Shown here piece by piece: positions 984-41,869 of a stretch of DNA of 64,000 bases. The notes under the pieces are model-generated. The model searched no databases. It was not told the DNA's origin and saw nothing but the letters and a program-made list of their open reading frames with translations. How positions within the stretch are numbered: position 1 is the stretch's first letter; each line of letters starts with the position of its first letter. Made by a program: the position numbers and the translations under genes. Source of the DNA: a virus; the IMG/VR virus record IMGVR_UViG_3300005002_000001. One strand, given 5' to 3'.

Positions 984-1577
984 ATGGTGGAGGCAACGAT
1001 GACCAAGAACGAGATCGTCCAGGGCGCGTACGCGATGGTCAACCAGCTGACGGACGAGCTGTCCCGTCTCCGCACGGCGGAGCGTAAGGCGCAGCACGAG
1101 GTCTGGAAGGCGAAGGGCGGGTGCGAGCGCTGCGGCGGTCGCGGCTGGATCGTCGTCTGGGACACGCTCGACTCCCTGAGCGGCTGCTACGCCGAGTATG
1201 GCTCGTGCCCTGAGGGTGACAAGTGCACCGCCTCGACGGTGGGCGCCGACCCGGGCTACTACGACCACAAGTACGATAACCTCCGCTGGCACAAGGACAC
1301 GTTCGTCCCGTCCGCCCAGATCGCCGCCGCCGAGCGCGAACTCAAGGACTGGCAGGAGACGCTGAAGGCGGCGCAGGACGACGCCAAGATCGCCAAGGGG
1401 AAGATCATCCGGGTCGTCCGCGGGCGCAAGGTGCCGCAGGGCACGACGGGCGAGTGCGTCTGGTTGGGCGCCGGGAAGTCCTACAGCTACTACGACCGCG
1501 GCGCCGACCGGGTCGGCATCAAGGACTCCAACGGGCAGGTCCACTGGACGGCGGCCTCCAACTGCGAGGTTGTGTGA
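984..1577 (+). CDS. zinc-ribbon protein with C-terminal SH3-like (GW/WT) domain
   Basis: CERCGG...C...C cysteine cluster; C-terminus VWLGAGKSYSYY...GQVHWTAAS resembles the paralogous GDL-WTV-GW family. Confidence 0.55.
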   Translation: MVEATMTKNEIVQGAYAMVNQLTDELSRLRTAERKAQHEVWKAKGGCERCGGRGWIVVWDTLDSLSGCYAEYGSCPEGDKCTASTVGADPGYYDHKYDNLRWHKDTFVPSAQIAAAERELKDWQETLKAAQDDAKIAKGKIIRVVRGRKVPQGTTGECVWLGAGKSYSYYDRGADRVGIKDSNGQVHWTAASNCEVV

Positions 1578-1584
1578 GCGTTTG

Positions 1585-1618
1585 TGTAATCTCGCCGACG
1601 AAGTGATAGGATAGATCC
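1585..1618 (+). promoter_or_regulatory. conserved promoter TGTAATC-N15-TAGGAT-N6-ATG
   Basis: tgtgtaatctcgccgacgaagtgataggatagatccATG. Confidence 0.55.
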
Positions 1619-1834
1619 ATGGCAACCAAGAAGGTCCACGTCCTCTCCGTCCAGTCCGAGTCCTGCGACCACTACGGTCCGTTCGTCTTCGCCGTCCGAC
1701 CCAACGTCGCTCAGCTGAAGACCTTCCTCAGGAAGAACACGTCCCCCGACGACGCCGACTTCTCGGCCGACGGTCCGGGCTGGCAGGGATCGTACCTGCA
1801 CCTGACCTGGTCGACCCGGACCGTGCACGAGTGA
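1619..1834 (+). CDS. hypothetical protein
   Basis: track ORF starting at predicted leaderless transcription start site. Confidence 0.55.
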   Translation: MATKKVHVLSVQSESCDHYGPFVFAVRPNVAQLKTFLRKNTSPDDADFSADGPGWQGSYLHLTWSTRTVHE

Positions 1835-1858
1835 GTGTAAAGAAGCGCTGAGCACTTC

Positions 1859-1892
1859 TGTAATCGCGAGCGAGTCCTGATAGGATTAAATC
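1859..1892 (+). promoter_or_regulatory. conserved promoter TGTAATC-N15-TAGGAT-N5-ATG
   Basis: tctgtaatcgcgagcgagtcctgataggattaaatcATG. Confidence 0.55.
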
Positions 1893-2066
1893 ATGGTCAA
1901 GCTGGTCCTCCCGCAGGAAGTCAAGATCGCCGTCCGACCCCTCAAGCTCGTCCCGTCCGAGGACGAGTACGATCGCATGTCCAAGATGGAGTGGCGCTTC
2001 GCCGTCCTGGACGCTCGGACCCAGGTGGGTCGGGCGCTCAACCAGTTCTTCTACGGAGGCAAGTGA
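1893..2066 (+). CDS. hypothetical small protein (57 aa)
   Basis: ATG 6 nt after -10 element; translated by hand MVKLVLPQEVKIAVRPLKLVPSEDEYDRMSKMEWRFAVLDARTQVGRALNQFFYGGK; stop overlaps next ATG. Confidence 0.5.
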   Translation: MVKLVLPQEVKIAVRPLKLVPSEDEYDRMSKMEWRFAVLDARTQVGRALNQFFYGGK

Positions 2067-2524
2067 TGGGCTACTGGATCGTCAAGGGCGGCGCCAAGGT
2101 CAACGGCAAGACCGTCTACCTCCAGGACCAGGGCATGCTCCGGACGGAGGACCAGCCGCGCGGCGGACCCGGGTTCTTCGGTCCCAAGAAGTCGGCCTTC
2201 CGCTTCGCCTCAGGCGAGCAGGCGACGCGAGCGACCCTGGGCATGCTCAACCTGGGACGCGGAGCTCTCCCGGTGGCCGTCGAGACGAAGAAGCCGCATC
2301 GCAGCTTCCTGGTCGATCAGGCCATCGCCGACCTGGAGCGGGACGTGGAGTACGAGTCCGACCTCCCCAAGGCGTACATGCAGCCCGACGACTGCTCCTA
2401 CCGCTGCAAGGCGGCTCTGCTCCGGTACGTCCGAGAGCTGGAAGCGGCCCTCAAGGCGGCGAGCAAGCCCAAGTCCCGGTACGAGACGGCCAACCGGCAC
2501 GAGTACGATTCCTCCAAGGCGTAG
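2066..2524 (+). CDS. hypothetical protein (N-terminal MGYWIVKGG motif)
   Basis: ATGA-coupled start inside track ORF 1991-2524. Confidence 0.5.
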   Translation: MGYWIVKGGAKVNGKTVYLQDQGMLRTEDQPRGGPGFFGPKKSAFRFASGEQATRATLGMLNLGRGALPVAVETKKPHRSFLVDQAIADLERDVEYESDLPKAYMQPDDCSYRCKAALLRYVRELEAALKAASKPKSRYETANRHEYDSSKA

Positions 2525-2558
2525 TGTAATCGTCCGCCCGGCGTGGTAAGATGGATTC
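2525..2558 (+). promoter_or_regulatory. conserved promoter TGTAATC-N16-TAAGAT-N6-ATG
   Basis: gtagtgtaatcgtccgcccggcgtggtaagatggattcATG. Confidence 0.55.
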
Positions 2559-3227
2559 ATGGTGGAGAGCAAGCAGATGCACAAGTCGGAGTTCGCGCGG
2601 ATCAGCAAGGCCGTCATCGCCCGCCTCATCGAGGCCGGACTGCCCCTGCGGCAGGACTCGCACGACGAGCTGGTCGCCCTGGTGGCCAGGCAAGACGATT
2701 ACTTCCACGACGTCCGCGCCGTGCTGAGCGTCGATCCCAAGGCGCGCTGGTCCGAGGACGCCCGGATCGACGTGACGGCCGACCGCAGCTGGGACAAGGA
2801 AGTGGACGAGGAGACGGGCGACGTCCTGGCCACGTCCAAGGTCAAGGTGACACTGCGCCTCAGCAGCTTCGAGGGCCCTCCCTCGGACGAGCTCTACGGT
2901 CGGCTGGACCTGACGCGCCAGGCCGTCGAGGCGTGCGAGAGCCTGCAGAAGGAGTTCGCCAAGGAGTACAAGTACGTCGTCCGCACGGCGGCGGAAGAGG
3001 CCGAGCGTCTGGCCAAGGAGGAGGCCGAGAACCGGCGCCTGAAGGTGCAGCGGATGGCCGAGTACCCGTCCAAGGGACTGCGCGCCGGCGGCAACGCCCG
3101 AACCGTCTCCCGCGAGCTCTTCACGGGCTGCCCGGACGGGACGTACGAGGTGAGCTACGATTCGGGCAAGCGCCAGTGCCGAGTGGTCCTCAGGCCGGGT
3201 AACGCCACCATCAGGAGGCTGGGATGA
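2559..3227 (+). CDS. hypothetical protein with C-terminal coiled coil
   Basis: track ORF; EEAERLAKEEAENRRLK heptad-like segment; alternative start at 2574 after GGAGAG. Confidence 0.55.
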   Translation: MVESKQMHKSEFARISKAVIARLIEAGLPLRQDSHDELVALVARQDDYFHDVRAVLSVDPKARWSEDARIDVTADRSWDKEVDEETGDVLATSKVKVTLRLSSFEGPPSDELYGRLDLTRQAVEACESLQKEFAKEYKYVVRTAAEEAERLAKEEAENRRLKVQRMAEYPSKGLRAGGNARTVSRELFTGCPDGTYEVSYDSGKRQCRVVLRPGNATIRRLG

Positions 3228-3472: not shown

Positions 3473-3893
3473 CCGCCGCCTGCAACGTTGCGGCAACTGG
3501 GGCCCCTGCAGAGCTGCAACGTCGTTGTAACAAGGGGCCCCTACGGGCCCCCTTCGGAGAGGCGAAAAAGGCCTAGGGGCCCGCCCCATTAAAGGGCCCC
3601 ATTAAAGTGGGGGGGCCGGGGGCAACCTTTGTGGGGCTTTTAACCACCTCCAGCGGGACCTAACCCCCTGCGGAAAATCTGGACCCTCCGCCGACTTTTC
3701 ACTCCACGCAGCGAGCGACCACGTTGATAAGCGTTTATTAGCAGCTCGAAAAAATGTAACCGAGGCCCACGTGCCCAAAAAATCTGGAAAAAAAGTGTCG
3801 GGCTTTTCAAGCCCTGCATCCTTGCATAGCAAGGACCTCGATCGACGAGGCCAATCGGCGCAGCATTCGCGTTTGAAACGCAATCCCACGCTC
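3473..3893. repeat. non-coding island dense in GC-rich palindromes and hairpins
   Basis: gcaacgttgc, ctgcagagctgca, ggggcccc (x2), gggccccc, short direct repeat ccattaaag (x2), hairpins gggcttttcaagccc and gcgtttgaaacgc; no convincing ORF. Confidence 0.5.
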
Positions 3894-4253
3894 ATGGAAG
3901 CGCTGGACGCCAGCATCGCGAAGGAGAAGGCGAAATTCCCGTTGGGCGTCATCGTCGCCCGGAATCACGCCGATCGAGCCGCGCTCAAGCTGGAAAAGAA
4001 TCCGGCCGAGCGGCCTCTGAGTTTTCCTCATGTTGATCAGTTGGACGAATGGCACCGAAACGTCCAAAAAGCTCGGGAAGCGACCTATTTTGTCGTCATC
4101 GATTCCCATTGGGACGCCGATTACTGCTATCTGTGGGTCGAGCTCATGGGACTGGGAGACCCCAGCGTCCGAGGCTGGTTGCGTAACCCGGAGACCAAAC
4201 TGATGCAGGTCGATCTGGAAAAGAAGAGAACGCGCCCGTGTAAAACACGCTGA
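3894..4253 (+). CDS. hypothetical protein (start uncertain)
   Basis: track ORF 3771-4253 trimmed to ATG 3894 because 3771-3890 is hairpin-rich. Confidence 0.35.
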   Translation: MEALDASIAKEKAKFPLGVIVARNHADRAALKLEKNPAERPLSFPHVDQLDEWHRNVQKAREATYFVVIDSHWDADYCYLWVELMGLGDPSVRGWLRNPETKLMQVDLEKKRTRPCKTR

Positions 4254-4278
4254 TCCCTTCAGGTTACTTTGCTTTCAA

Positions 4279-4773
4279 ATGCCGATCATCCTATCCACCC
4301 AACCCCAAGACATCGACATCGCCGAGGCCTACGCCTTGGACGTGTGCCAGTCCGATCCCCGCAAGAACCCCGAGACCTTTTACACCGGAGCTCTAGGCGA
4401 GCTCGCCTTCGCTCGTTGGGACGGGCCCGAGACTTACGACCGCTGCGTCGCGCACCTCCGTCGGGGCGCCGCTCCCGCCGCCGAGGACTGGCGTTACGAC
4501 TTCGTCTCCCGGCGTTCCTATCTGATCGACGTCAAGTCGGTGGGTTACGACAACGTCCGTCGGGGCTTCGGCGATATGCTCATCTCCAAGCCCGATCCCG
4601 ACGTCACCTACGTCCTCCTCTATTCCCTGGGCCCGAGCAATCGAGTCTTCGAATTCTCAGGTTGGGTCCTGGGCTCGCAGATCCACGATATGGCCCTCAA
4701 GCCACTGGCGCGCGACAATCACAAGTTCGTTCGGGTGCGCAAGCGCGATCTCAACCCGATCGACAAATGGTGA
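4279..4773 (+). CDS. hypothetical protein, possible PD-(D/E)xK-type nuclease
   Basis: GALGELAF ... DF ... YLIDVKS pattern resembles a restriction-endonuclease-like D...(D/E)xK core; weak. Confidence 0.3.
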   Translation: MPIILSTQPQDIDIAEAYALDVCQSDPRKNPETFYTGALGELAFARWDGPETYDRCVAHLRRGAAPAAEDWRYDFVSRRSYLIDVKSVGYDNVRRGFGDMLISKPDPDVTYVLLYSLGPSNRVFEFSGWVLGSQIHDMALKPLARDNHKFVRVRKRDLNPIDKW

Positions 4774-5138
4774 GCGCCCCGTCCTGGCGAGAGCTGCTGA
4801 GCGAGGTCTTGATGAATATCGTCCGTTGGATCGACATGAAGCTGGCTCCGGATCCCGGGCAGGTGCTGCGCCTGCGGCCGGGCCATTGGAACCCCGAGCC
4901 CTCCCTCGACATGACGCTGATCGCCCTGCATCGCGAATTTCCTAAGTGGAAGGCGCTCGATCACGCGTCCTACCGCATCTGGAAGAAGGCCGAGCTGCCT
5001 ACCCACTGGGTCGTCGTCGAGAAGCGCTGGCATCCCGAGGCCCAGCAGGTCTTTATCCGGCTGGTGTCGATGGGCGAGCGCGAGGTTCTGGGCTGGTGCC
5101 AGTACTTATACGAGCACTTCGACTGGGTCAAAGTTTAA
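4769..5138 (+). CDS. hypothetical protein
   Basis: ATGgTGA overlap start inside track ORF 4269-5138; the upstream part of that track ORF is Arg/Pro-rich GC artefact. Confidence 0.45.
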
Positions 5139-5163
5139 GGACGCCGACAAGAAATAGCTCTCG

Positions 5164-5197
5164 TGTATTCTCCGCGCCCTGGGTGTAAGATTGGGCT
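5164..5197 (+). promoter_or_regulatory. promoter variant TGTATTC-N15-TAAGAT-N6-ATG
   Basis: tcgtgtattctccgcgccctgggtgtaagattgggctATG. Confidence 0.45.
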
Positions 5198-5491
5198 ATG
5201 AGCCTGCAGTGCGTCGATCGTTCCTTCCCGCCTCGGGGAGCTTTGCTGGCCGGTGCGCGCGCCCAAGTTTTGGGCGACCTGGTCTCCTTCTATCGCACGC
5301 CGGAGTGGTCGAAGCGCGCTGATAACCACATCGGAGATTTTCGGACCGACGGCTTCTGGATCGTCCTGACGAAGCATCGGGATCGGACTCGTCTCATCTC
5401 TTTTCGTCCGGATCGGATCCGCCAGGTGTGCGGCTGGATCGAAAACATCGACCTGCGCTTCAAATTCGACCTCATTCGGAGCCGACCGTGA
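5198..5491 (+). CDS. hypothetical protein
   Basis: track ORF following promoter variant. Confidence 0.5.
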   Translation: MSLQCVDRSFPPRGALLAGARAQVLGDLVSFYRTPEWSKRADNHIGDFRTDGFWIVLTKHRDRTRLISFRPDRIRQVCGWIENIDLRFKFDLIRSRP

Positions 5492-5832
5492 GCATGCTGC
5501 AACGCCGACCGGGCGACGTCCTGCAAGGCGTCCTGCTGACGGGCAAGCTGGCTCCCTGGCCGCCTTACGTCCGGGCCAATCGAGTCCGCGTCTATCGGCG
5601 CATCGATCTCGAGCGTTCCCGAGGGATCGCCCGGGGCGAGCTCTTCCACCTCATCGGTTCTCGGGTCGAATACGACCTGTCGCGCCAGGGTTACTGGACG
5701 GTGCTCGAATACTTCCTGGGCGCCGCCCGCTATCGGGTGCTGCACGTCGATGAGATTCATAAGCTGCACGACGTCTTGATCAACGTCGGTGATATCGAGG
5801 ATACGAAACTCTTTCGCAAGGTGAACAGATGA
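5488..5832 (+). CDS. hypothetical protein with GYWTV motif
   Basis: GTGA overlap start (or ATG 5494); RQGYWTVLEY motif of the paralogous family. Confidence 0.45.
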   Translation: MSMLQRRPGDVLQGVLLTGKLAPWPPYVRANRVRVYRRIDLERSRGIARGELFHLIGSRVEYDLSRQGYWTVLEYFLGAARYRVLHVDEIHKLHDVLINVGDIEDTKLFRKVNR

Positions 5833-6119
5833 GCGACAAGCAGAGCAAGCAATCGGACCAACTGGACAGCTGGATGTCTATGCTGACGGACGACAAGGAG
5901 CGGGCCAGCGTCATCAAAGCCCAGATCGAGGCCAACGCCCAGACGGAGCGCGTGCGGGTCGAGCAGGTCGAGCAGTCCCGCCGGGCCGACATCGCCACCG
6001 ATGGCTTCCAGGGGTTTCGCATCGTCGCCGTCTTCGCCATCATGGCGGCCATCGCCGGTTCGACGTGCGTCGGCTATCACGCCATCGAGCTGAAGGCGGG
6101 CGCCTCCCAGCAGAAGTAG
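5829..6119 (+). CDS. small membrane-anchored protein with coiled coil
   Basis: ATGA overlap; C-terminal hydrophobic stretch FRIVAVFAIMAAIAGSTCVGY. Confidence 0.5.
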   Translation: MSDKQSKQSDQLDSWMSMLTDDKERASVIKAQIEANAQTERVRVEQVEQSRRADIATDGFQGFRIVAVFAIMAAIAGSTCVGYHAIELKAGASQQK

Positions 6120-6128
6120 GAGCTTTTC

Positions 6129-6542
6129 ATGGATCATCGGGAGCAGATCGCTCGACTCGTCGAGCTGCACGCCCAGGGCGTCATCTCTCGCCGGACCCTC
6201 ATCGAGGCGGCCGGTCTGGGCGACGTCATAAAGGACGACGAGGATAACAACGTGGCCGACGAGGTCGAGAATGTCGACGAGGACGACTTCCTGGATCGCA
6301 CCTATCCCCTGGGCGCGTTGATCCGGCCTAGAGTGCCGCTATCGGTCGGCATCAGCCTGTCGACCCGGCCCGGAGGCAAACCGCTGGCCGACGGCGAGCG
6401 CGCTCCCGTCGCCGTCCAAGTGAAGGCCTCGGGCTACTGGACCGTCGTCGCTCATCGCTCGGGGTGGACCAAGGTCGCCTCGGCCGACGGCCGCGGCGCG
6501 GGCTGGACCTTCTACGTCCGGGACTACTTTGAGCGCGTCTAA
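6129..6542 (+). CDS. GDL-WTV-GW family small protein (acidic linker + SH3-like C-terminus)
   Basis: SGYWTVVAHRSGWTKVASADGRGAGWTFYV; RBS aggag upstream. Confidence 0.6.
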   Translation: MDHREQIARLVELHAQGVISRRTLIEAAGLGDVIKDDEDNNVADEVENVDEDDFLDRTYPLGALIRPRVPLSVGISLSTRPGGKPLADGERAPVAVQVKASGYWTVVAHRSGWTKVASADGRGAGWTFYVRDYFERV

Positions 6543-6849
6543 GCGGAGCGATAAGCGGAGCGATTACATCGACTTTCGGCAGGGGGACCTGCTGGTCGGT
6601 CGACCCAACAAGCCCGAAGGCACTCTGCACCTGGAGAGACCTAATCGTTACACCCACACCCCGCAGCGACCCTGTCCCAACTATAGCTTTTCTCTGGACG
6701 AGTGCGTCGTCCTCATCCTGAGCGCCCAACGAGCCGGCAAGGACGCCTTCGCCGACTCCGAGGTCCTGGTCTCCGACTGTCGTCGGCAGAAGCTGATGCG
6801 TGGCTGGATGACCAATTACTACCTGATGAACGATTTTTGGATAGCATGA
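6529..6849 (+). CDS. hypothetical protein (FRQGDLLVGRP motif)
   Basis: track ORF, overlaps neighbours by a few nt. Confidence 0.4.
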   Translation: MSASKRSDKRSDYIDFRQGDLLVGRPNKPEGTLHLERPNRYTHTPQRPCPNYSFSLDECVVLILSAQRAGKDAFADSEVLVSDCRRQKLMRGWMTNYYLMNDFWIA

Positions 6850-7331
6850 GCAAGCGCAAGAAGCGCAACTGGACGGCGGCTCAGCAGGCCGTCTGGAAGG
6901 CGATCCTGGACGATATCAAACGCTGGACCATCCCGAACTGGATCTATGAGATGCAGTCCCTGGGCCTCTCCGTCCGGCGCGAGATGTACGGGGATTATGA
7001 CGAGGAGCATAGAGTCGTGAGCCTGAGCAAGTATCCCTTCGCACTGGGTACCCTGGTGAAGGTGCGACCGCGCAAGCCCTTTAAGGGCTCGATCGACGTC
7101 GTCCTGTCGGATAGGATGCGTTGGCCGCCCAAAGCCCGGGGCAAGAATGCCTACGCCTTCGGTGACAATAGGCGGGTGCCAGGCTGGGGTTACTGGACCG
7201 TCGTCGCTGTCGATCCCGTGCCGGGCGTAGGATTCTGGCACAAGATCGTCCGGGGAGACGGCGAGATGGGCTGGGTCGAGGACCTGCAGAAGGACTTCGT
7301 CGTCGTGAAACCCGAGGAAGAAACCAAGTAA
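6846..7331 (+). CDS. GDL-WTV-GW family protein
   Basis: ATGA start inside track ORF 6702-7331; GWGYWTVVAVDPVPGVGFWHKIVRGDGEMGWVED. Confidence 0.55.
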   Translation: MSKRKKRNWTAAQQAVWKAILDDIKRWTIPNWIYEMQSLGLSVRREMYGDYDEEHRVVSLSKYPFALGTLVKVRPRKPFKGSIDVVLSDRMRWPPKARGKNAYAFGDNRRVPGWGYWTVVAVDPVPGVGFWHKIVRGDGEMGWVEDLQKDFVVVKPEEETK

Positions 7332-7339
7332 TATTTCCG

Positions 7340-7519
7340 ATGGCGAAGCGTTCGAAGTTCGAAGAACAATGGACTCGGGAGCAGCTGCTGAGCGAGGTCC
7401 GAGAGCTCCGGGCGAGGAACGTCCGCCTCGAGCGGCGACTCGCCGAGCTGGAGGCCGCGCAAAAAGATAACTGCCTATCCGACGCTTCGCGTCGCGACAA
7501 CAGATTCGAACTCGCCTGA
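7340..7519 (+). CDS. small coiled-coil (leucine-zipper-like) protein, 59 aa
   Basis: hand translation MAKRSKFEEQWTREQLLSEVRELRARNVRLERRLAELEAAQKDN...; stop overlaps next ATG. Confidence 0.45.
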   Translation: MAKRSKFEEQWTREQLLSEVRELRARNVRLERRLAELEAAQKDNCLSDASRRDNRFELA

Positions 7520-7848
7520 TGTCTCACCGATTCCTCAATCTCATCAGCGATACTTCGCTTCTAAAAGAGGGCGACCTTCTCAAGCTGTACTCCCATCATT
7601 CTCGGAAGCTCAACGGTGAGGAAGAGGAACACGGCCCGTCCATCAAGCTACACCCCGCCGCTAACGAGTATAGCACGCGAGCTACTTACGTTCATGGCGC
7701 CCTCTTCTGGACCGTGCTGAGTACCTGGACTCGAGACTGGGTCTTCGTCGTCAATTCCGACGGCGACAAGGGCTGGGCGAATATTCATTCGAACACGCTG
7801 GAACTATGCGAGTCGCGCGATTCCACTCAATCTACGCCTACGATCTGA
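7519..7848 (+). CDS. GDL-WTV-GW family protein
   Basis: EGDLLKL ... LFWTVLSTWTRDWVFVVNSDGDKGWANI. Confidence 0.55.
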   Translation: MSHRFLNLISDTSLLKEGDLLKLYSHHSRKLNGEEEEHGPSIKLHPAANEYSTRATYVHGALFWTVLSTWTRDWVFVVNSDGDKGWANIHSNTLELCESRDSTQSTPTI

Positions 7849-8093
7849 AGCCAGGAGATTTGCTGCGACAAACGCTCGCCGCCTCCCTGCGCGGGGGCGG
7901 AATGCAGCTTCTAAATGAGAGGACGCCCGAGCCCACCTACAATTTCAAGTACTCGAACCACAATTCCCTCTGGTGGACCGTCCTGGCCGTCTATGACGAC
8001 GAATACATCGAGATCCTCTCCCATTACAATCATGAGCGTGGATTCGTCCATCGCCGCGATTGGGACAACTTCGAACTGGTAGTCGAGCAATGA
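7806..8093 (+). CDS. GDL-WTV-GW family protein
   Basis: PGDLLRQ ... LWWTVLAVYDDEYIEIL. Confidence 0.5.
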   Translation: MRVARFHSIYAYDLKPGDLLRQTLAASLRGGGMQLLNERTPEPTYNFKYSNHNSLWWTVLAVYDDEYIEILSHYNHERGFVHRRDWDNFELVVEQ

Positions 8094-8566
8094 ACATCTT
8101 CGTCCTGGACACCGATCCCGTCCGCGCCGCCCAGATGCAGTGCGACAAGCACGTCGTCAAGATGATCGTCGAGTCGGCGCAGATGCTGTGCAACGCCCTG
8201 CCCCTCCAGTTCGCCTACTACGAACGCACCCATTTCAATCACCCGTGTTCCGTCTGGGTCCGCGCTTCGCGCGAGAACTACCTTTGGCTGTGCGAGCACG
8301 CCCTCGAACTCTGTCACGAGTATACTCGTCGCTACAAGAAGACCCACTCCACCGAATGGGTCATCCTGCTCTGCATATCTCTCGCCGAGCTCGTACCGAG
8401 CTCGCGGCTGACTCCTTTTGTCATCTGCGTGCCCGACGACTGCAAGACTCCCGATCCCGTCGAGTCCTATCGACTGTGCTATCTCAAGCACAAGTCCCGT
8501 TTCGCCAAGTGGAGATTCGCTTGCTCACCCGCGCCCGCTTGGTACCAAACGCTTCAAAACACGTAG
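8090..8566 (+). CDS. hypothetical protein
   Basis: ATGA start; N-terminus MNIFVLDTDPVRAAQMQCDKHVVKMIVESAQML; no function assigned. Confidence 0.5.
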   Translation: MNIFVLDTDPVRAAQMQCDKHVVKMIVESAQMLCNALPLQFAYYERTHFNHPCSVWVRASRENYLWLCEHALELCHEYTRRYKKTHSTEWVILLCISLAELVPSSRLTPFVICVPDDCKTPDPVESYRLCYLKHKSRFAKWRFACSPAPAWYQTLQNT

Positions 8567-12101: not shown

Positions 12102-12842
12102 ATGAGAGTGGCCGTCGTATTACCCAGTCACGTCCGGACTTTCGAGCGGTGCTGGCCGAATTGGCTCAAGCACGTCGTCGAGCCCAACGGTTGGAAGTGC
12201 CGATACTTCATTCACACGTACGACCTGGCGGAGATGACGCAGGAGACGAGCCGGAAGCTCGACAAGGTCGTCCGACCCCCGGAAGCGGAGTCACGCGCTC
12301 TCGTTGAAAAAGCTCTAGCGACTCTGGCTCCGCACACCGAGTTCGTTGCTGTCGATTCGAACCCGCCCAATGTCGCTCGTACCCTCAGAGAATTGAGAGG
12401 CTGCGGCATCTACCAAGGCCGCGGCGGCAACGCGGAGGCACAGTGCCTGCAGACGAAGAAGCTGCAGATGGCCTACGAACCGCTCAGGACTCGTTTGAAC
12501 GAGTTCGACCTGGTGGTGCGCTGGCGCTTCGACATGGAATTCGCCTCTCCCATCGAGGTTCCCACGCTGCGCGACGACCAGATCGTCACCATCGCTCGCC
12601 TCAGCATGCCGCACGATTGCATGTGCGATTGCTTCGCCGTCATGCGTCCCATCCAGCGAGTGTGCGATGCCTATTTCGACGTTTACGACAGCCTCCTGCC
12701 CAGGGCCCAGAGAAAGAACTATCTGAAGCGCTACACCCTCGAAAATCATTTCGGTCTCAATATGATCGAGCACGGCATCGAGCGCCTCGTCCTTCCCAAC
12801 CCGGACAATACGATCAAGTGCGTCCGCTTCGACGATCCCTGA
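12102..12842 (+). CDS. hypothetical protein, paralogue of 28381-29184 (possible glycosyltransferase-like)
   Basis: N-terminus MRVAVVLPSHVRTFERCWPN matches MRIAAIWVGHVRTFHRIWPEN in the other copy; shared RxxDxEF block; function inferred weakly. Confidence 0.5.
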   Translation: MRVAVVLPSHVRTFERCWPNWLKHVVEPNGWKCRYFIHTYDLAEMTQETSRKLDKVVRPPEAESRALVEKALATLAPHTEFVAVDSNPPNVARTLRELRGCGIYQGRGGNAEAQCLQTKKLQMAYEPLRTRLNEFDLVVRWRFDMEFASPIEVPTLRDDQIVTIARLSMPHDCMCDCFAVMRPIQRVCDAYFDVYDSLLPRAQRKNYLKRYTLENHFGLNMIEHGIERLVLPNPDNTIKCVRFDDP

Positions 12843-12846: not shown

Positions 12847-12881
12847 TGTAATCTCGGCTTCTCGGGGCTTATGATGGTCCC
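12847..12881 (+). promoter_or_regulatory. conserved promoter TGTAATC-N16-TATGAT-N5-ATG
   Basis: gttgtaatctcggcttctcggggcttatgatggtcccATG. Confidence 0.5.
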
Positions 12882-13067
12882 ATGCTAGCGGCAATTGCGT
12901 GGGCCTATGAGACTCTCGAAGCCAACGATCAGATGACGGCGGCCGAGCTCAAGGAGCAGTATCGCTGGTTCATGAAGACGTACCACCCGGACAATCCGGA
13001 GACAGGCGACGTCCAGATCTATCGCAACGCCATCGAGGCGTGGAAGATCCTCAGCAGGGAGATTTGA
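12882..13067 (+). CDS. J-domain mini-protein (DnaJ-like, HPD motif)
   Basis: ELKEQYRWFMKTYHPDNPETGD...IYRNAIEAWKIL matches the J-domain helix II-HPD loop-helix III pattern. Confidence 0.55.
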   Translation: MLAAIAWAYETLEANDQMTAAELKEQYRWFMKTYHPDNPETGDVQIYRNAIEAWKILSREI

Positions 13068-13364: not shown

Positions 13365-13776
13365 ATATACGACCCACAAGCTGGGCGACATCAAGCAATT
13401 GATCTCGAACTGCGTCCAGATCGCGCTAGAAGACGAGGATTCCCAGTTCTTCAAGACGTGCGAGGAGTTGCGTCGTTTGAGAAACGCGTTGGATCCGCGC
13501 GAGCTGCGGACCGACCACGTCAAGTGGCATCGCAAGGACAATTGGCGACTCGTGGGAAAGGAAATCATCGATAATCCGTACGCCTCGGCCCCTGATGAAA
13601 AACGTCTTCCGTACCAGCTCAGGTTGGAATTCGACGCCGGTCTTTACCGAGCGTGGGTGACGGTGTGCAATTTCCCGGCTCCTGAGGGAGACATTCGTGA
13701 CATCGACGTCCTCATCGGAGCCTTCTGGTCGCCCGAGCACCAGCCGCCGACGGGACCCATTCGAGTCCGCGGATGA
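13348..13776 (+). CDS. hypothetical protein
   Basis: track ORF; ATGA overlap with next gene. Confidence 0.5.
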   Translation: MTALSEYTTHKLGDIKQLISNCVQIALEDEDSQFFKTCEELRRLRNALDPRELRTDHVKWHRKDNWRLVGKEIIDNPYASAPDEKRLPYQLRLEFDAGLYRAWVTVCNFPAPEGDIRDIDVLIGAFWSPEHQPPTGPIRVRG

Positions 13777-14198
13777 AAAAGCAGCTCGAAGAACTCCTCT
13801 TGACGGAGGAGGGTGCTATCGTCCTTTTGGGCGAGGAGAAAGTCATGTCCAAAACGGGAGATTGGTCCGGGCTCGTGGGTCGCATGATTCGTGGCCGTGG
13901 CTATTCTCATTCCGAAGGTTACGAGACGATCGACCTGTATCCCAGCGTCCAATCTTACGACAAGAAGATGGACGAAAAAGCGGGGACGCACGAGTCAGGA
14001 GCATCTTGGCAAATGTGGCGTCTCTTGACGAAAGAAGAGCGCGGGCAACCCGTCCAGCTCTATAAGAAAGATATCTGGACCGTTGTGGGAGTCGAGGTCG
14101 ACAAGGAAGGCGCTCTACGTCTCGTCAAGATCGCTTCGCCCGCCGGACAGACGGGTTGGACTCCTCACTTCTATCGCCTCGAGGTCGTCGACGGATGA
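13773..14198 (+). CDS. GDL-WTV-GW family protein
   Basis: KKDIWTVVGVEVDKEGALRLVKIASPAGQTGWTPHF. Confidence 0.55.
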   Translation: MKKQLEELLLTEEGAIVLLGEEKVMSKTGDWSGLVGRMIRGRGYSHSEGYETIDLYPSVQSYDKKMDEKAGTHESGASWQMWRLLTKEERGQPVQLYKKDIWTVVGVEVDKEGALRLVKIASPAGQTGWTPHFYRLEVVDG

Positions 14199-14548
14199 TC
14201 ACTCTTTTCGAAAGCATGACGATCAAGCAGGGGGACTTGCTGCGTTTCGAACCCGACGGTCGGTGCCAGCTCTTCGACCTGTATCAGCGCCTCGAACGCG
14301 GCGTCATGCAGAGCTACACGCCGCTCGATCCCGTCCAGACGTGGGATCAGGTGTGGACCGTGCTCGACGTCGTCATCGATCGAGACAAGCTACTATGCAT
14401 CGTGCAGATGTGCAGCGCCCAGGGAGCCAAAGGCTGGGTCGTCATGGTCGCTGACGGCCAGCATCCCGCGCGCGGATCCAACCTTCTGCGTCACAACTTC
14501 GAGATCATCGAAGACTACGGCGAATTCAACTGCGATAAATGCCTTTGA
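14195..14548 (+). CDS. GDL-WTV-GW family protein
   Basis: ATGA start; QGDLLRF ... VWTVLDVVIDRDKLLCIVQMCSAQGAKGWVV. Confidence 0.55.
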   Translation: MITLFESMTIKQGDLLRFEPDGRCQLFDLYQRLERGVMQSYTPLDPVQTWDQVWTVLDVVIDRDKLLCIVQMCSAQGAKGWVVMVADGQHPARGSNLLRHNFEIIEDYGEFNCDKCL

Positions 14549-27965: not shown

Positions 27966-28409
27966 ATGAAGACGTTTCGTATCAAGCTGGGAGACCTCCG
28001 AAAGTTCATTCGAGAAGTCTACGAATGCGGCGACATGATGCCTGAGGCCGGAGGAGACATCTACGGCGCGGGATCGGCTGGCCCGGGAGAATCGTCCGGA
28101 AAAACGATGGCTGAAACCGATTCAGGACCGTCTTGGCCGCATCCGTGGCCCAAACCCAAAAATTCAGAAATGATAAAGGCTCATCGAGCTGTGATGGATT
28201 ATCTGGGTCCTGAGCATGTCGGAGACCTGGTCAACGCAAAATACGTCCTGGACCCTCGAGTCAAGGGAGTCGTCGGTATCCGTCTCGAAGACGGCGGGCA
28301 GCACGCCGGCACGACGATAGATTTTGTCGTCTACAACTGCGACAGAGGTTGCAGCGCCGACGATGTCGATGAAGTTCAGTTCACATCTTGGCCCCCGACC
28401 GTGTACTGA
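27966..28409 (+). CDS. protein with shared N-terminal leader MKTFRIKLGDLRKFIREVY
   Basis: fourth member of the N-terminal leader family; upstream acttaaagggATG resembles the ATATTTAAAGCC motif. Confidence 0.5.
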   Translation: MKTFRIKLGDLRKFIREVYECGDMMPEAGGDIYGAGSAGPGESSGKTMAETDSGPSWPHPWPKPKNSEMIKAHRAVMDYLGPEHVGDLVNAKYVLDPRVKGVVGIRLEDGGQHAGTTIDFVVYNCDRGCSADDVDEVQFTSWPPTVY

Positions 28410-29184
28410 TCAGCTTTTGAGCTAGCGTCTTTCCGTCTTCCTTGCTGAAGCGGACGATTTCCAACAAGTGCTTCCCGTTGACGGGCTCGACATATCGAGC
28501 CTCGAGACGTTTAATACCCGAGCGCTTGCAATGCAATGCGTAATTCTGTTCGGGCCACCAATCTCGTTTTTCTTCGAGCAGCATCTTGGGCACGCTCTCT
28601 CCCATTCTCATGTAGCGATCGATCGCTTTGGGATGGCCGATGGCGAATCGATCGTCCATACCGTCGTGGAAAAAGGGCGGACCAAGACTGTCGAACGTGT
28701 AGAGCTCGTCCTCCGTCAAGCCGGCTAGCTTGATGTCGACAAGACCTTGAAATTCAACATCAGGTCGATGGAAAACGATGGCATCGAACTCTTCCCAGTC
28801 AGGGAGATGAGTTTTGAAAGAGTTCCACGCTTCGAGCCGTTTGGTGAATTGGTGGACGACGGTCCCAACGTGGCCCGTATTCATGTCGGGTCGCTTCTTG
28901 CAGATCTCGTTATAAAGATCGATCGAAGCCTGTGACATATCTCTTATGTCTAAGACTTCAGGGTCGAGGGCTAACTTGACGTATTCGAGGGCGTCTTCCG
29001 CCGAATAATCAGCGGGTGGATCATCCGGTCGGTTGCGTCGGCATTGCCCGGCGGGATACGTATAGAAAAAGTTGCGAACGGGTTCCGTCAGACCCAATCG
29101 ATTCCAGCATCTTTCTGTCACGTTTTCGGGCCAGATCCGATGAAAAGTTCTGACATGTCCCACCCAGATTGCTGCAATCCTCAT
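28381..29184 (-). CDS. hypothetical protein, paralogue of 12102-12842 (possible glycosyltransferase-like)
   Basis: shared N-terminus MRxAxxxxxHVRTFxRxWPxN and HRPDVEF / DDRFAIG blocks. Confidence 0.5.
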   Translation of the reverse strand: MRIAAIWVGHVRTFHRIWPENVTERCWNRLGLTEPVRNFFYTYPAGQCRRNRPDDPPADYSAEDALEYVKLALDPEVLDIRDMSQASIDLYNEICKKRPDMNTGHVGTVVHQFTKRLEAWNSFKTHLPDWEEFDAIVFHRPDVEFQGLVDIKLAGLTEDELYTFDSLGPPFFHDGMDDRFAIGHPKAIDRYMRMGESVPKMLLEEKRDWWPEQNYALHCKRSGIKRLEARYVEPVNGKHLLEIVRFSKEDGKTLAQKLISTRSGAKM

Positions 29185-34735: not shown

Positions 34736-35503
34736 ATGGACCTCTCTGACAGAATGAAGCAGTACGAGGGAACCTACCGAGGTTACCTGAAGATCGAAAA
34801 CGAGCATGACGTAGTCGTCATTCGTGTCGACGGTCGGGCATTTCACACCTACACTCGAGGGGCTAAAGAGCCGTTCGACGAGATGCTGCAATCTTCGATG
34901 AACGAGGTAGCTCGCGAACTGTGCGAGAACATTCAGGGAGCGCAGCTGGCCTATGTCCAATCGGACGAGGTGTCCGTCATCGTCTCTGCGGGCAACGGAG
35001 CCAACATCTGGTTCGATGGAAACATCCAAAAGATGTGCTCCATCTCGGCAGCGATCGCTTCGACCCGCATGACTTTGGAGTCTCCAAGAGTCTTCGGCAA
35101 GATGAGAGTCGCTCAGTTCGATTCTCGAGTCTTCGTCCTGCCCAAGGAAGAAGTCATCAACTACCTCATCTGGAGGCAATCGGACGCCACTCGAAACTCT
35201 GTTCAAATGCTAGCTCGATCCCTCTTTTCCCACAAGCAGTTGCTGGGAAAGTCGTGCGACGTCATGAAGCAGATGGTGAGAGAAGCCGGGAGACCTTGGG
35301 AGAACGAAGCCATCGGCTCGACCCGGGGTCGCTGCATCATCAAGCAATCCTTTCAAGAGAACGTCGAATACGTCGACAAGCGTACCAAGCAAATCAAAAA
35401 CGCCGTCGCCGAACGAACTCGCTGGATCCCCATCTGGGATATCCCGTGCTTCGTGCAAGACAGGACTTTCGTCGCGCAGCAGCTCAAAAAGGAACAGCAA
35501 TGA
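34736..35503 (+). CDS. thg1: Thg1-like tRNA 3'-5' nucleotidyltransferase (tRNA-His guanylyltransferase family)
   Basis: VVIRVDGRAFHTYTRGAKEPFDEML...AYVQSDEVSVIV aligns with the Thg1 core RLDGRNFHRF...AYGQSDEYSFVF. Confidence 0.75.
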   Translation: MDLSDRMKQYEGTYRGYLKIENEHDVVVIRVDGRAFHTYTRGAKEPFDEMLQSSMNEVARELCENIQGAQLAYVQSDEVSVIVSAGNGANIWFDGNIQKMCSISAAIASTRMTLESPRVFGKMRVAQFDSRVFVLPKEEVINYLIWRQSDATRNSVQMLARSLFSHKQLLGKSCDVMKQMVREAGRPWENEAIGSTRGRCIIKQSFQENVEYVDKRTKQIKNAVAERTRWIPIWDIPCFVQDRTFVAQQLKKEQQ

Positions 35504-35988
35504 AAAACAGAAGACCGGTCACGAAGGGCAAAGCGGCCAGGGGTTGGAACGATCGCCACACTTACAGCCCGCCTCCCAATCCTTTTGTCACCAAGACGAA
35601 GGTAGAAGCGGGCACGTACATGATGGCTCCCGATTCGGCCGACAAGGCGACGGAACTCTATGCGAGTCGAGGCATCTGGGGCGGGATCCCGCTCAATATG
35701 CAGATTCGAGAACTCAAGCCCGATGGCACGACGCGATTGGATTCGAATCGCCAGATCCAATCAAACGAACCATTCTTCGTGACCGGTCAGTCTTACGTGT
35801 CAAAGCAAGGAAACGTCGTCCTTGTCGAAATTATCCCTCCCGATGGATATCCCGGATGGATCGAGATTCGTCGAGCAGACGACGTGATACACGGTCACCA
35901 GTCATTCAACGATATCGCTAATGAGACTGTCAAGTATTGGTTTACTCAGACGTTCTCGGGCAAAAAGCGACGACAGAGCGATCGATAG
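35500..35988 (+). CDS. hypothetical protein
   Basis: ATGA start inside track ORF 34921-35988. Confidence 0.45.
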   Translation: MKNRRPVTKGKAARGWNDRHTYSPPPNPFVTKTKVEAGTYMMAPDSADKATELYASRGIWGGIPLNMQIRELKPDGTTRLDSNRQIQSNEPFFVTGQSYVSKQGNVVLVEIIPPDGYPGWIEIRRADDVIHGHQSFNDIANETVKYWFTQTFSGKKRRQSDR

Positions 35989-36342: not shown

Positions 36343-36708
36343 ATGAGGCAATACGATAGCAAGATCCTTCGAAACAGAATTGTGAGCGATCCCATCAAAC
36401 TAGAGGCTCTGGCTGTCAAGTTTGGTTATCACATCGGAGACCTGGTAAAACCCATTCCGAGGGATAAGTGGCAGAATGCGTATTCGGGACGTGACAGCGG
36501 AATTCGATGCTGCTGGTCTTGCAATAGAGAGCGACCGATCTATCGTGGAAAAGGAAAGTATCTCGAACCCAACGAGGGCGTCATCGTCCTCGATATGATC
36601 GATTCGCCCAATGGCCGTCTGACCGTCGTCATGACGTCGGAGGGAAAACCCGGATTCGTGCGCTCTAGCGAATTGGAAATGATCCAACCCAATCCCGATC
36701 GGAAGTGA
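36343..36708 (+). CDS. SH3-like small protein (GDL family, divergent)
   Basis: IGDLVKPIP...NEGVIVLDMIDSPNGRLTVVMTSEGKPGFV; upstream TATAGGAC -10-like element. Confidence 0.5.
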   Translation: MRQYDSKILRNRIVSDPIKLEALAVKFGYHIGDLVKPIPRDKWQNAYSGRDSGIRCCWSCNRERPIYRGKGKYLEPNEGVIVLDMIDSPNGRLTVVMTSEGKPGFVRSSELEMIQPNPDRK

Positions 36709-36736
36709 TCGAAAACTCGGCACGTGAGTAATTCTT

Positions 36737-36997: not shown

Positions 36998-37001
36998 TGC
37001 G

Positions 37002-37858: not shown

Positions 37859-37877
37859 GCCGCCGTAAGGGTGTGCC

Positions 37878-38505: not shown

Positions 38506-38686
38506 TCGACCGTCGGCGGCGCAGGACGCCTGCCGCCTCAACGAAGCGCGACAGATCGCATGCGCCGCGGCCAATAAATCGTGGGAGATCGATCACAACT
38601 GGCCTCGGGCTCAGGGAGTCTTTGCGACGAACATGTCACACCTCGGCTGCGGAGAATCTAGAAAGTGGGACGGTGTCTGCCGCTAA
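38441..38686 (+). CDS. small secreted Cys-containing protein
   Basis: signal peptide MIQRVIFLSTLSILIMILSGLDRPSAAQDA; start inside track ORF 38327-38686. Confidence 0.45.
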   Translation: MIQRVIFLSTLSILIMILSGLDRPSAAQDACRLNEARQIACAAANKSWEIDHNWPRAQGVFATNMSHLGCGESRKWDGVCR

Positions 38687-38855
38687 AGCACGGGTCGGGG
38701 ATCTTGTCCTTTCGAAGACTCACTGCTACGGGATCGTACTTCTCTATCTCCCGGAGTCAGAGCACTACATCGTCCTTTGGACGATCATCAAAAATGGCGT
38801 CACCCGATTCAACGAACAATTGAGAGAACCCGAATCTTTTAGTAAGATCTCGTAA
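38662..38855 (+). CDS. SH3-like small protein (GDL family); putative GTG start
   Basis: RVGDLVLSKTHCYGIVLLYLPESEHYIVLWTII in track ORF 38502-38855. Confidence 0.3.
38819..38854 (+). promoter_or_regulatory. sigma70-like promoter TTGAGA-N18-TAAGAT-N6-ATG (leaderless)
   Basis: caattgagagaacccgaatcttttagtaagatctcgtaATG. Confidence 0.45.
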
Positions 38856-39636: not shown

Positions 39637-40777
39637 CTTGCAATCGTTCATCGATGCGAGAGCCATCAAACCCATCGAATTCGAAACGGTCGACGACGGC
39701 TGCGCCGATCGATTCTTGACGAGCCTGCGACCGGTCGAAAGGAAGGTCGTCGAGGCAGCGCTCGACGCTGGAGGCTTCGTGGCAGGCGGTTGCCCTCGGT
39801 ATGTGACCGAGACGATCGATCACATGGGCGGTTACGACGAGATCGATGCCAATGCGTACCGTCAATTCGGTGATTGCGATCTCTTCTTCCCCAATGAGGA
39901 GTCGTATCGAGTCGCCCATCAGGACCTGCTGAGTCGTCGTGGGAGGGTCCAGCTGTCTCTAAAGGCGGACGCTCAGAATCGGGAAGAATCCATCACGACC
40001 AACGAACGTGGCATCTTTGCAATCAATTTGCAAGCGAACGAGATCGATTTGAAGGGAAAGACCTTGCCCTTCCAGCTCATCAAGTGCGCTTTCGGCGACC
40101 TGCAATCGACGTTGGCACGGTTTGATATCCTCAATTCGATGATTGGATTCTTTCGGGAAAACGGCAAGATGAGGACGTTGAGGGCTCGAGGATGGTTGGA
40201 AAACGAACGCAGCAATACGCTCAACGTTCTGGTCTGGGACTCTCCTCTCAGCTTTTATCGCATCCAGAAGTACATCCAAAAGTACGGATACGAGCGCCTC
40301 GCTCACATGGGAATCTCGCATGATCGTCTCATGAAAGACATGGCGAAGACGATGGAGGCTCTGCCTTTCGATCCCGAACCGGCACGCAGGCGACCGATGG
40401 CCTGGCAAAATGTGCGTTCTTCGGGAGAGAAGATCATCTTCACTCAGCAAAATTACGCTGTGCACATCATCAATACGCTGGCCGCAGTGGGGCACAACTT
40501 CCCAGAGGAAGTGGTCGTCTTCATGCTTTCTCTTTGCATGGCGACGGGGGTCGTCAATGACAAGGGAGCCAGCGATTTGATGATCAAAACCAGCGAGATG
40601 CGGCGGGTCTGGGACCCTAAGGTGATGAAGGCGAGGGTCGAGTCGTGGAAAGAAAGCCAGAGGAAAATGCTGGCCGAGAAGGCGGACAGGCAAGCTCGGA
40701 TCGCAGCGGGGGAAGACGTCTATGGCCTTGGCCTGAGACACACGATCCCGATCCCTGGATTCAAGGGTCGCCCCTAG
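39611..40777 (+). CDS. hypothetical protein (388 aa)
   Basis: ATG 39611 inside track ORF 39572-40777, overlapping upstream stop. Confidence 0.5.
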   Translation: MTQTSSENNLQSFIDARAIKPIEFETVDDGCADRFLTSLRPVERKVVEAALDAGGFVAGGCPRYVTETIDHMGGYDEIDANAYRQFGDCDLFFPNEESYRVAHQDLLSRRGRVQLSLKADAQNREESITTNERGIFAINLQANEIDLKGKTLPFQLIKCAFGDLQSTLARFDILNSMIGFFRENGKMRTLRARGWLENERSNTLNVLVWDSPLSFYRIQKYIQKYGYERLAHMGISHDRLMKDMAKTMEALPFDPEPARRRPMAWQNVRSSGEKIIFTQQNYAVHIINTLAAVGHNFPEEVVVFMLSLCMATGVVNDKGASDLMIKTSEMRRVWDPKVMKARVESWKESQRKMLAEKADRQARIAAGEDVYGLGLRHTIPIPGFKGRP

Positions 40778-40893
40778 AAGAAGATTCCCTCTTCGTCAAA
40801 TCGATCTGGTGGTTTCTGATCTATATCGTCCTCATCGGAACGATATTGCTAGCGACTCCATTAGGAATGGCTCTCATATTTTCGAGATAATCG

Positions 40894-41208
40894 ATGTCGA
40901 ACGTCGAATTGCCCACCAGCAACAGCATCTATCCCGGTTGTCTCGTCGCCCTCAACGACAAGAATAGCTACTACGCCAACCGAGTCATTTTGCTCGAAAA
41001 GCACCCAAGAGAAGTCAAAACTTCCGACGCAACCCGTGTCTTGCCCCTCGAGCAGAATTCAATCGGAGTCGCGATCGAAATCTTTCCAAACGCTCTCGTC
41101 AGAAAATCAGAAAGGACCTGGCTCGTCTATTTCCATCCGAAGATGGCGGTCGTCGAGCAGTCAAGGTTACGTAGGGTATCGTTCTCCTGGAGGGAAATCA
41201 ACAAATGA
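40894..41208 (+). CDS. hypothetical protein
   Basis: track ORF. Confidence 0.45.
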   Translation: MSNVELPTSNSIYPGCLVALNDKNSYYANRVILLEKHPREVKTSDATRVLPLEQNSIGVAIEIFPNALVRKSERTWLVYFHPKMAVVEQSRLRRVSFSWREINK

Positions 41209-41269
41209 TCCTTCAGGGCCTTACAACGTACGATACTTATGATTACCTTGTTTGATTGAGGAGAAAGAC

Positions 41270-41575
41270 ATGTCGAACCTTTTCAAGGCCCCGAGCGTCA
41301 GTGCGGCTGTTTTCAGCGATACCGATCTCAAAAAGATGTCGACCTTGTGGTATGGAAACACCGACCTCAAGGGGGAAGCCGTCAAAGAAAAGTGGAAAGA
41401 CGTGATCGGAGAAGAGAACGCTTATCTCTTCGTCAAGAGGCTGCGTCAGACGGTTCTCTCTTACAAGGAACACATCAAGAAGCTCTACAAGATCGATCCT
41501 GATGAGCGCGAAAAGTTCGAACAGGACATGGTCAATACGATCGTGGCCCTGGAGTCGGCTTTCACACTCAATTGA
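41270..41575 (+). CDS. hypothetical protein
   Basis: AGGAGAAAG RBS 5 nt before ATG 41270 (track ORF 41252-41575 uses TTG). Confidence 0.5.
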   Translation: MSNLFKAPSVSAAVFSDTDLKKMSTLWYGNTDLKGEAVKEKWKDVIGEENAYLFVKRLRQTVLSYKEHIKKLYKIDPDEREKFEQDMVNTIVALESAFTLN

Positions 41576-41582
41576 AAGTTCG

Positions 41583-41617
41583 TGTATTGACCATCCCAGC
41601 CAGGATAGGATGATACT
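41583..41617 (+). promoter_or_regulatory. promoter variant TGTATTG-N16-TAGGAT-N6-ATG
   Basis: cgtgtattgaccatcccagccaggataggatgatactATG. Confidence 0.45.
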
Positions 41618-41869
41618 ATGATAGAGCTTGGTGATCTAGTCGTCTTCACACCCTGTCAACGAAATTGCTCTCAGTTATTAAAGCTAGCGGGCAAAGTAGC
41701 TTTCAGAAATCTAAGAGAGCAAGTATCATGCGGCGTAGTCATCGATCGCTTTAGCAAAAGCGAAGGTACAACTCTTAGAGTCATTTTTCCGGAAGGCTCT
41801 TACAGCATGGATATCAATCAAGTGACTACCGTTAGCAAGTGGTACGTCGGTTCGCTAAATAAACTGTAA
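41618..41869 (+). CDS. SH3-like small protein (GDL family)
   Basis: MIELGDLVVFTPCQ...CGVVIDRFSKSEGTTLRVIF. Confidence 0.5.
   Translation: MIELGDLVVFTPCQRNCSQLLKLAGKVAFRNLREQVSCGVVIDRFSKSEGTTLRVIFPEGSYSMDINQVTTVSKWYVGSLNKL

Follow-up and report, generated by a model that had tools for sequence, protein, structure and literature searches.

SH3b domains are known from lysins and surface proteins, which they anchor to the cell wall outside the cell. Examples of the SH3_3 type (PF08239) are the domains with which the phiSM101 endolysin and NlpC/P60 hydrolases bind the wall, and the GW modules (PF13457) of Listeria InlB, Ami and Lmo1076 and the staphylococcal Atl R repeats are extracellular repeats that bind lipoteichoic acid. 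In phage T4, each of GoF, MotB.1 and Frd.2 is an LSm-like early protein and the N-terminal domain of MotB is KOW-like (PMC12152347, PMC7827196). A lineage-specific expansion of a small domain is documented in a jumbo phage, Bacillus phage G, which has about 35 zinc-ribbon copies; the same survey of jumbo-phage expansions describes no SH3-type case (PMC7824862). The subject here is a stretch of 64,000 nucleotides (nt) from the IMG/VR virus record IMGVR_UViG_3300005002_000001, analysed whole and called the window, and a set of 12 small genes on its plus strand. The reading that these genes form one family and that the family has an SH3b-type fold is, taken as a whole, held with high confidence.

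The family differs from SH3_3/SH3b domains in three ways. It falls below every Pfam cut-off; it adds an insert of 34-58 amino acids (aa) at the position of the RT loop; and its proteins stand alone, encoded by 12 separate genes without a hydrolase domain, a signal peptide or tandem repeats within the chain. The resemblance of the predicted structure to GW modules is real as well, although no member has a Pfam GW match and the window proteins are single-domain and without an export signal. Like the T4 proteins, the family comprises several small SH3-type barrels of unassigned function in a dispensable, probably early region of a large lytic phage. The T4 proteins, however, are three and are kin by fold only, whereas the window family has homology detectable in sequence, 12 copies and a predicted SH3b-type rather than LSm barrel. 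As with the zinc ribbons of phage G, one small domain has been amplified to many stand-alone copies in a single large-phage lineage, although the fold is a different one. The fold, small-domain expansion in jumbo phages and a small, fold-level T4 family of early proteins with SH3-type barrels are already known. New is a stand-alone, signal-less SH3b-type barrel with an enlarged loop insert, spread over 12 genes; scans of the members against Pfam, PHROGs and PADLOC gave nothing at or near cut-off, and against NCBIfam only chance-level matches. A barrel type otherwise met as a wall anchor would here form twelve separate, predicted cytoplasmic proteins, each with its own large insert and probably in an early region. 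This SH3-type case joins the few documented small-domain expansions in jumbo phages.

Twelve paralogous genes on the plus strand

Hidden Markov models (HMMs) built with one member left out at a time were searched against all 911 six-frame open reading frames (ORFs) of the window, with reversed copies as decoys. Eight of ten members were recovered, at E 5e-3 to 1e-7, against best E values of 0.07-2 for the reversed decoys; the weakest were 5494 (E 0.86; genes are named here by their first position) and 7806 (E 0.22). An HMM enriched with orthologues matched exactly 12 ORFs of the window, the best decoy having E 0.48. These searches identify the 12 genes as paralogues of one lineage-specific protein family that spans 3894-24180, with a cluster of eight genes in 3894-8093, a tandem group of three at 13773-14847 and a lone gene at 23878 (Table 1). 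No member was found by the family HMM between 24.2 and 64 kb of the window, or in the 10 kb upstream of it (L005).

Eight members (4812, 6129, 6846, 7519, 13773, 14195, 14539 and 23878) scored above decoys with an HMM that had not been trained on them. Two others were also found, by an unseen HMM and by profile-profile alignment with hhalign. The first, 3894, is linked to 4812 by phmmer (E 5e-6) and was matched by an unseen HMM at E 0.0012, and with its orthologues it aligns to the family at an hhalign Prob of 94.6% (P 7e-8). The second, 5198, was matched by an unseen HMM at E 0.0052 and by hhalign at Prob 68.7% (P 4.5e-5); it was among the top non-members in every leave-one-out run and the single top one in most. 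By the same tests 5494 and 7806 are weak. The hhalign value of 95.5% for 5494 is circular, the gene being present in the profile; 5494 has no independent significant support and is counted as a member on its visible YWTVL motif. 7806 is linked to 7519 by phmmer at E 0.006. Further phmmer links join 6129 to 6846 (2.5e-5) and 13773 to both 23878 (2.1e-7) and 14195 (1.6e-5); the left-out HMM recovered 6129 at E 0.0026 and 6846 at E 1.4e-6. Orthologues were found for 6129 (P0012, P0017, P0018, P0026), 6846 (P0011, P0014, P0024, P0025) and 7519 (P0003, P0007, P0009).

An initial annotation, made from the sequence alone, had proposed at least 15-18 genes (about 20) of one paralogous family over 984-41869. 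The family proved real but smaller and more confined. Nine of the listed ORFs belong to it and three members (3894, 4812 and 5198) had been overlooked. The proposed motif is positionally homologous in an alignment of those nine, 5494 (listed as 5488), 6129, 6846, 7519, 7806, 13773, 14195, 14539 and 23878, and the G, W and G columns of the alignment are invariant. The translational coupling also described there was seen: in seven of the 12 members the start overlaps the preceding gene, by 1-43 nt, and three of these overlaps are the 4-nt ATGA. The 43-nt overlap of 7519 and 7806 is present in relatives L002-L004 too.

Table 1. Family genes, promoter-like elements and two enzyme genes, in window coordinates
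Feature	Position	Strand	Remarks
Family member, 119 aa from ATG	3894..4253	+	Gene caller starts instead at GTG 3771 (160 aa)
Family member, 108 aa	4812..5138	+	Identical to P0001; left-out HMM E 0.005
Probable family member, 97 aa	5198..5491	+	Most basic member (pI 10.7)
Divergent family member, 112 aa	5494..5832	+	Listed initially as 5488; YWTVL kept, GD replaces GW
Family member, 137 aa	6129..6542	+	N-terminal helical segment and acidic linker ahead of barrel
Family member, 161 aa	6846..7331	+	66-aa N-terminal extension; ATGA-coupled to 6529-6849
Family member, 109 aa	7519..7848	+	Left-out HMM E 0.005
Family member, 95 aa	7806..8093	+	GF replaces GW; 43-nt overlap with 7519-7848
Family member, 141 aa	13773..14198	+	First of translationally coupled triplet; left-out HMM E 3.1e-5
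Family member, 117 aa	14195..14548	+	Cys-rich C-terminal tail; ATGA-coupled; left-out HMM E 6e-4
Family member, 102 aa	14539..14847	+	Left-out HMM E 6e-4
Family member, 100 aa	23878..24180	+	Singleton locus; protein modelled by AF2
Promoter-like element, starts	645, 950, 1585, 1859, 2525, 9459, 12847, 18864, 22560, 23228	+
Promoter-like element, TGTAATC-N15-TAAGAT-N6-ATG	2525..2561	+	Nearest one upstream of the 3894-8093 cluster
Promoter-like element	12847..12884	+	Upstream of the unit with 13773, 14195 and 14539
Promoter-like element	23228..23264	+	Upstream of the unit with 23878
DenV-like pyrimidine-dimer glycosylase	8090-8566
AlkB-like oxygenase	22595-23227

Predicted fold and loop insert

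The members are stand-alone single-domain proteins of 95-161 aa with a common order of motifs: G-(D)-L-(L/I/V)-(R/K) in the first strand, then variable sequence, aromatic-W-T-V-(V/L), x-(K)-(I/V) at the end of a strand, G-x-x-G-W and, near the C-terminus, F/L-E-x-V. The Gly-Trp pair is present in eight of the ten aligned members. Of the acidic linkers that had been described as frequent, only the one in 6129 is obvious; 6846 and 7519 have shorter runs of acidic residues.

The structure of the 23878 protein was predicted with AlphaFold2 (AF2) from an alignment of ten paralogues. The model is all-beta with nine strands (predicted local distance difference test score, pLDDT, 79.5; predicted template modelling score, pTM, 0.73). 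A second model, of 4812, built on an alignment from its own clade only, has the same strand order (pLDDT 71.8, pTM 0.68). The predicted structure is an SH3-type beta-barrel that superposes on solved SH3b domains, and the nearest structures are the cell-wall-binding SH3_3/GW modules of autolysins and endolysins.

Two sequence comparisons would back this fold independently of the model. First, a search of 1.84e9 proteins with the family profile matched three multi-SH3_3 lysins at E 1.0e-4 to 1.8e-4, the scores being summed across 5-7 repeats in each; in Pfam these proteins are arrays of SH3_3 domains. Second, an hhalign comparison with 18 true SH3_3 repeats gave Prob 74.5% and P 2.7e-5 over 42 columns, pairing WTVV..WyKI..G.GW of the family with vtVl..WykV..GktGW of the repeats. 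Since the conserved positions align to the SH3_3 repeat consensus, they probably form the barrel framework. The family is called SH3b-like, probably a remote relative of SH3_3 rather than a member of Pfam SH3_3, because no member reaches the Pfam cut-off. A faint SH3_4 match in 7519 falls on its W..V..G..GW part.

The insert, measured in six paralogues, separates the first strand from the WTV strand; in the model of 23878 it forms extra hairpins. It is not alignable between paralogues. Within each orthologous group it is conserved, in most groups slightly below the core (the 7519 group, for example, has 79%, and the closer orthologues of 6846 have 63-68%).

Isoelectric points (pI) of the members run from 4.7 to 10.7 and the maximum 19-residue hydropathy is at most 1.27. 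No member has a hydrophobic N-terminus, signal peptide or membrane segment, and the Pfam scan revealed no enzyme domain or any other Pfam domain. By these measures the members are soluble proteins. Each is a separate ORF, and none is exported or fused to a peptidoglycan hydrolase or surface protein by any recognisable signal or domain.

Distribution, turnover and transcription

The family is very rare, with nine matches among 5.8 billion clustered proteins and 22 among 1.84 billion representatives. It is confined to one small clade of related large phages, metagenomic and few in number. In a search for the 6846 orthologue group, IMG/VR and GTDB genomes gave no match, and JGI metagenomes gave two short JGI/GenBank contigs. 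Leaving aside the three SH3_3 lysins, each match is the orthologue of one particular paralogue of the window, so the duplications are, on sequence evidence, older than the split of these phages. The best phmmer links are mostly between neighbours (3894 with 4812, 6129 with 6846, 7519 with 7806, 13773 with 14195), which points to expansion mostly by tandem duplication. The relatives were compared as fetched stretches (L001-L012), and the member counts are those of the stretches: 9-11 in L001, seven each in L002 and L003, 6-7 in L007, and 5-6 within 3.6 kb in L008.

The gene-wide ratio of nonsynonymous to synonymous substitution rates (dN/dS) is 0.04-0.54 for members, inside the range of neighbouring genes outside the family, and indicates that the genes are real and under purifying selection. 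Gene-wide positive selection is ruled out, every value being below 0.55. An origin as fragments of a broken multi-SH3 lysin is ruled out as well, by the separate start and stop of each gene and by intact orthologues under purifying selection. The initial annotation had taken the expansion to suggest an arms race; if this is taken to mean fast point mutation, it finds no support, since dN/dS values are like those of neighbouring genes and the inserts are conserved within orthologous groups. Its other suggestion, that these are not housekeeping proteins, fits a family that is outside Pfam, PHROGs and PADLOC, is limited to one small phage clade and varies in copy number and alleles between near-identical phages.

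That variation is seen in two places. The first is in the main cluster, where entire genes have been acquired, lost or replaced between phages that are otherwise nearly identical. Relative to L002 and L003, the segment 3683-6962 is replaced while its flanks are 92-97% identical in nucleotides. Within it, 4812, 5494 and 6129 have no close counterpart in L002/L003, and 5198 and 6846 show 52-69% protein identity, with a synonymous divergence (dS) of 0.6-1.3 compared with 0.02-0.2 in the flanks. The second is 14621-15409, which carries member 14539 and is an insertion relative to L002/L003. The replaced and the inserted segments together indicate a turnover of copy number and alleles by recombination, like that of plastic regions in other large phages.

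The same insertion holds a 132-aa ORF (14844-15242) that is 91% identical to its counterpart in the distant relative L001, where 50-65% is typical, which points to lateral exchange. In L002/L003 the genes flanking 14621-15409 are fused into one ORF of 288 aa. The synteny with L002/L003 ends (at 3683) within a 421-nt non-coding, G/C-rich spacer, 3473-3893, with many GGGGCCCC-type palindromes; no Rfam family matches the spacer, and it folds with an ordinary energy (z -1.4).

A promoter-like element precedes the units in which the family genes lie. It consists of TGTAATC, 12-16 nt, T(A/G)NNAT, 4-8 nt and ATG, and has 10 plus-strand matches compared with 0.01 expected, the TGTAATC motif having been spotted by eye and the statistical test made afterwards. 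The element is kept in relatives L001-L008. All 12 family genes lie downstream of three of the elements (2525, 12847 and 23228), and none has an element of its own. The ATG follows 33-35 nt after the start of TGTAATC and only 5-7 nt past the -10-like hexamer, and transcripts from the element are for this reason probably leaderless. The ATG codons at 679, 984 and 2559, which begin 'MVE...' proteins, may be the true starts. A conserved sigma-70-like promoter and dozens of small ORFs suggest that the family genes are probably expressed early, by host RNA polymerase.

Possible roles and genomic setting

The explanation preferred overall is that the 12 SH3b-like paralogues are cytoplasmic, paralogue-specific binding modules, and the chances for it and against it are judged to be even. 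The genes would be transcribed early by host RNA polymerase, inside operons headed by the sigma-70-like promoter, and the paralogues would act in the cytoplasm. Without a signal peptide, membrane segment or enzyme domain, they are most likely cytoplasmic binding modules. The conserved barrel would be the framework, and through its insert each paralogue would recognise a ligand of its own. A host protein is the most plausible ligand, or else a phage or host macromolecule in takeover or counter-defence. The narrower proposal, that each is a binder specific for a protein, is tentative. The points behind it are that the proteins are soluble and enzyme-free, with a conserved framework, a paralogue-specific insert and a wide range of charge, and that they are encoded in a plastic region. 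More speculative is the idea of a 'binder library', in which a fixed SH3b scaffold has its RT-loop insert re-specified in each paralogue so as to disable a different host hub or defence protein, and whole cassettes are swapped between phages in a plastic early region; it would be a protein-level counterpart, built on a single fold, of anti-defence islands. Should binding specificity lie in the inserts, the family would amount to a natural, compact collection of scaffold-plus-loop binders, and to a route to the host processes or defences that this phage clade targets.

A number of observations weigh against the cytoplasmic binding module. The targets of canonical SH3b/GW domains are polymers of the cell envelope, bound outside the cell, and not proteins of the cytoplasm. 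The early, host-polymerase assignment of the sigma-70-like class is drawn from promoter resemblance only, and a generic scan of 1-20 kb for sigma-70 promoters and terminators gave nothing above chance. As to the fold, the first AF2 model was built on a ten-sequence alignment only, and its confidence, above 90 over the last 40 residues, drops to 58-79 in the insert; in the case of 4812, only one of five runs was confident. Foldseek of the model against PDB and BFVD returned nothing at E <= 0.001, and its top matches are only loosely SH3/Tudor-like; a profile search of PDB sequences gave chance-level matches only. The hhalign probability to SH3_3 repeats is only moderate, and no Pfam SH3 cut-off was reached. 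The best SH3_4 score, in 7519, was 12.3 bits (cut-off 24.1) and the best SH3_3 score, in 23878, 9.1 bits (cut-off 27); the other eight members had no SH3 match.

Binding of nucleic acid is an alternative use for such barrels. The paralogues would work in the way of the T4 early proteins of LSm and KOW type, as RNA or DNA regulators or chaperones, each adjusting a transcript or locus of its own. Small SH3-type barrels frequently bind RNA or DNA; T4 has sequence-diverse LSm-like early proteins and a KOW/SH3-like DNA binder (PMC12152347, PMC7827196); and the weak Foldseek top matches include Tudor and KOW or ribosomal SH3-like domains. Six members are basic (pI 8.6-10.7). The other half are acidic, however, which argues against a common nucleic-acid surface. 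This explanation is considered rather unlikely.

The closest structures and the only sequence-level relatives of the family are cell-wall-binding modules of autolysins and endolysins, so the canonical function of SH3b/GW domains has to be weighed too: binding of an envelope glycan, be it peptidoglycan, teichoic acid or a different one, by proteins that would be detachable subunits for targeting a lysin, or adhesins associated with the virion. It is improbable here. The members lack a signal peptide, membrane segment and catalytic domain, and they are found among small genes downstream of sigma-70-like promoters, about 20-40 kb from the minus-strand block of structural-looking genes. Twelve distinct wall-binding specificities in one phage would also be hard to account for.

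The next alternative concerns the extent of the family rather than its role. The 18-20 or so small 'GDL...' proteins over 1-42 kb might all form one SH3-like superfamily, the extra ones being too diverged to detect. Several of the unconfirmed ORFs do start with a G-D-L-hydrophobic strand, and many small uncharacterised phage proteins in BFVD weakly resemble the model. Yet 984, 2066, 26311, 37002, 38215 and 41618, all listed initially as members or possible members, score no better than reversed-sequence controls in HMM, phmmer and hhalign comparisons, and stay at control level in profile-profile hhalign with orthologues added from related contigs. The listed 38662 is an off-frame coordinate (codon AAA), and the actual ORF, 38673-38855, is likewise without signal. 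These seven ORFs lack the WTV and GW motifs. The possible member 6529 is at noise level (P 0.0066), and 36343 is a borderline case, with P 0.004 in comparison with the family and P 4e-4 with SH3_3 repeats. An ORF not listed before, 35500-35988 (plus strand), has a weak hhalign match to the family (P 8e-4). Iterated HMM searches drew in none of the remaining candidates; in profile-profile tests with orthologues from L001-L012 these failed, save for the weak signals of 36343 and 35500; and the HMM had no match in the equivalent 26-46-kb region of three relatives (L010-L012). A wider superfamily is thus given little credence, while 36343-36708 and 35500-35988 (both plus strand) may be separate SH3-like proteins.

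That the ORFs are decaying duplicates or mis-called frames without function is very improbable: they are short, belong to no family in the databases and some relatives do without them, but they have positive codon-usage scores, intact orthologues in several diverged phages at the low dN/dS given above and conserved translational coupling.

One of the excluded ORFs, 984-1577 (plus strand), encodes a protein of 192/197 aa that is 83-98% identical among relatives (dN/dS 0.08-0.26). Its N-terminal part is CxxC zinc-ribbon-like and it matches phrog_37790, a family of unknown function, at E 9e-6.

The plus-strand genes, about 100, run from position 1 to about 44.6 kb and are mostly small, many overlapping by 1-4 nt; the genes from 44.6 to 64 kb are on the minus strand, large and structural-looking. 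Besides the glycosylase and oxygenase of Table 1, the recognisable genes encode an SPFH protein, an ADP-ribosylglycohydrolase, Thg1, a T4-type RNA ligase 1 and a Laminin_G_3 protein of 1159 aa, and they are accessory genes usual for large phages. The window proteins map to a JGI contig of 162 kb, and of the relatives found the most distant lies on an NCBI contig of 241 kb. The window is therefore part of a large uncultured phage. No tRNA genes were found in it.

Several other features of the window were observed. The 882-aa protein of 15937-18585 (plus strand) has orthologues with a major-vault-protein shoulder domain (Pfam MVP_shoulder) and faint Vault repeats. Close relatives have it at 99% identity, and it shares 44% identity with proteins of the 462-735-kb uncultured phages LR756500, LR756501 and LR756503. 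Among the large minus-strand genes, three pairs of tandem paralogues lie in 44946-57977, as judged by phmmer: 50401-53310 with 53314-56193 (E 2e-121), 44946-46124 with 46133-47293 (E 4e-107) and 56239-57090 with 57090-57977 (E 1e-30). Paralogous proteins of 246 and 260 aa are encoded on opposite strands at 12102-12842 (plus) and 28381-29163 (minus), with a phmmer E of 9e-8; a Pfam scan assigned the 12102-12842 protein to no family. The G+C content, about 0.63 where the window begins on the left, declines steadily to 0.44 at its right end, which is unusual inside one phage genome.

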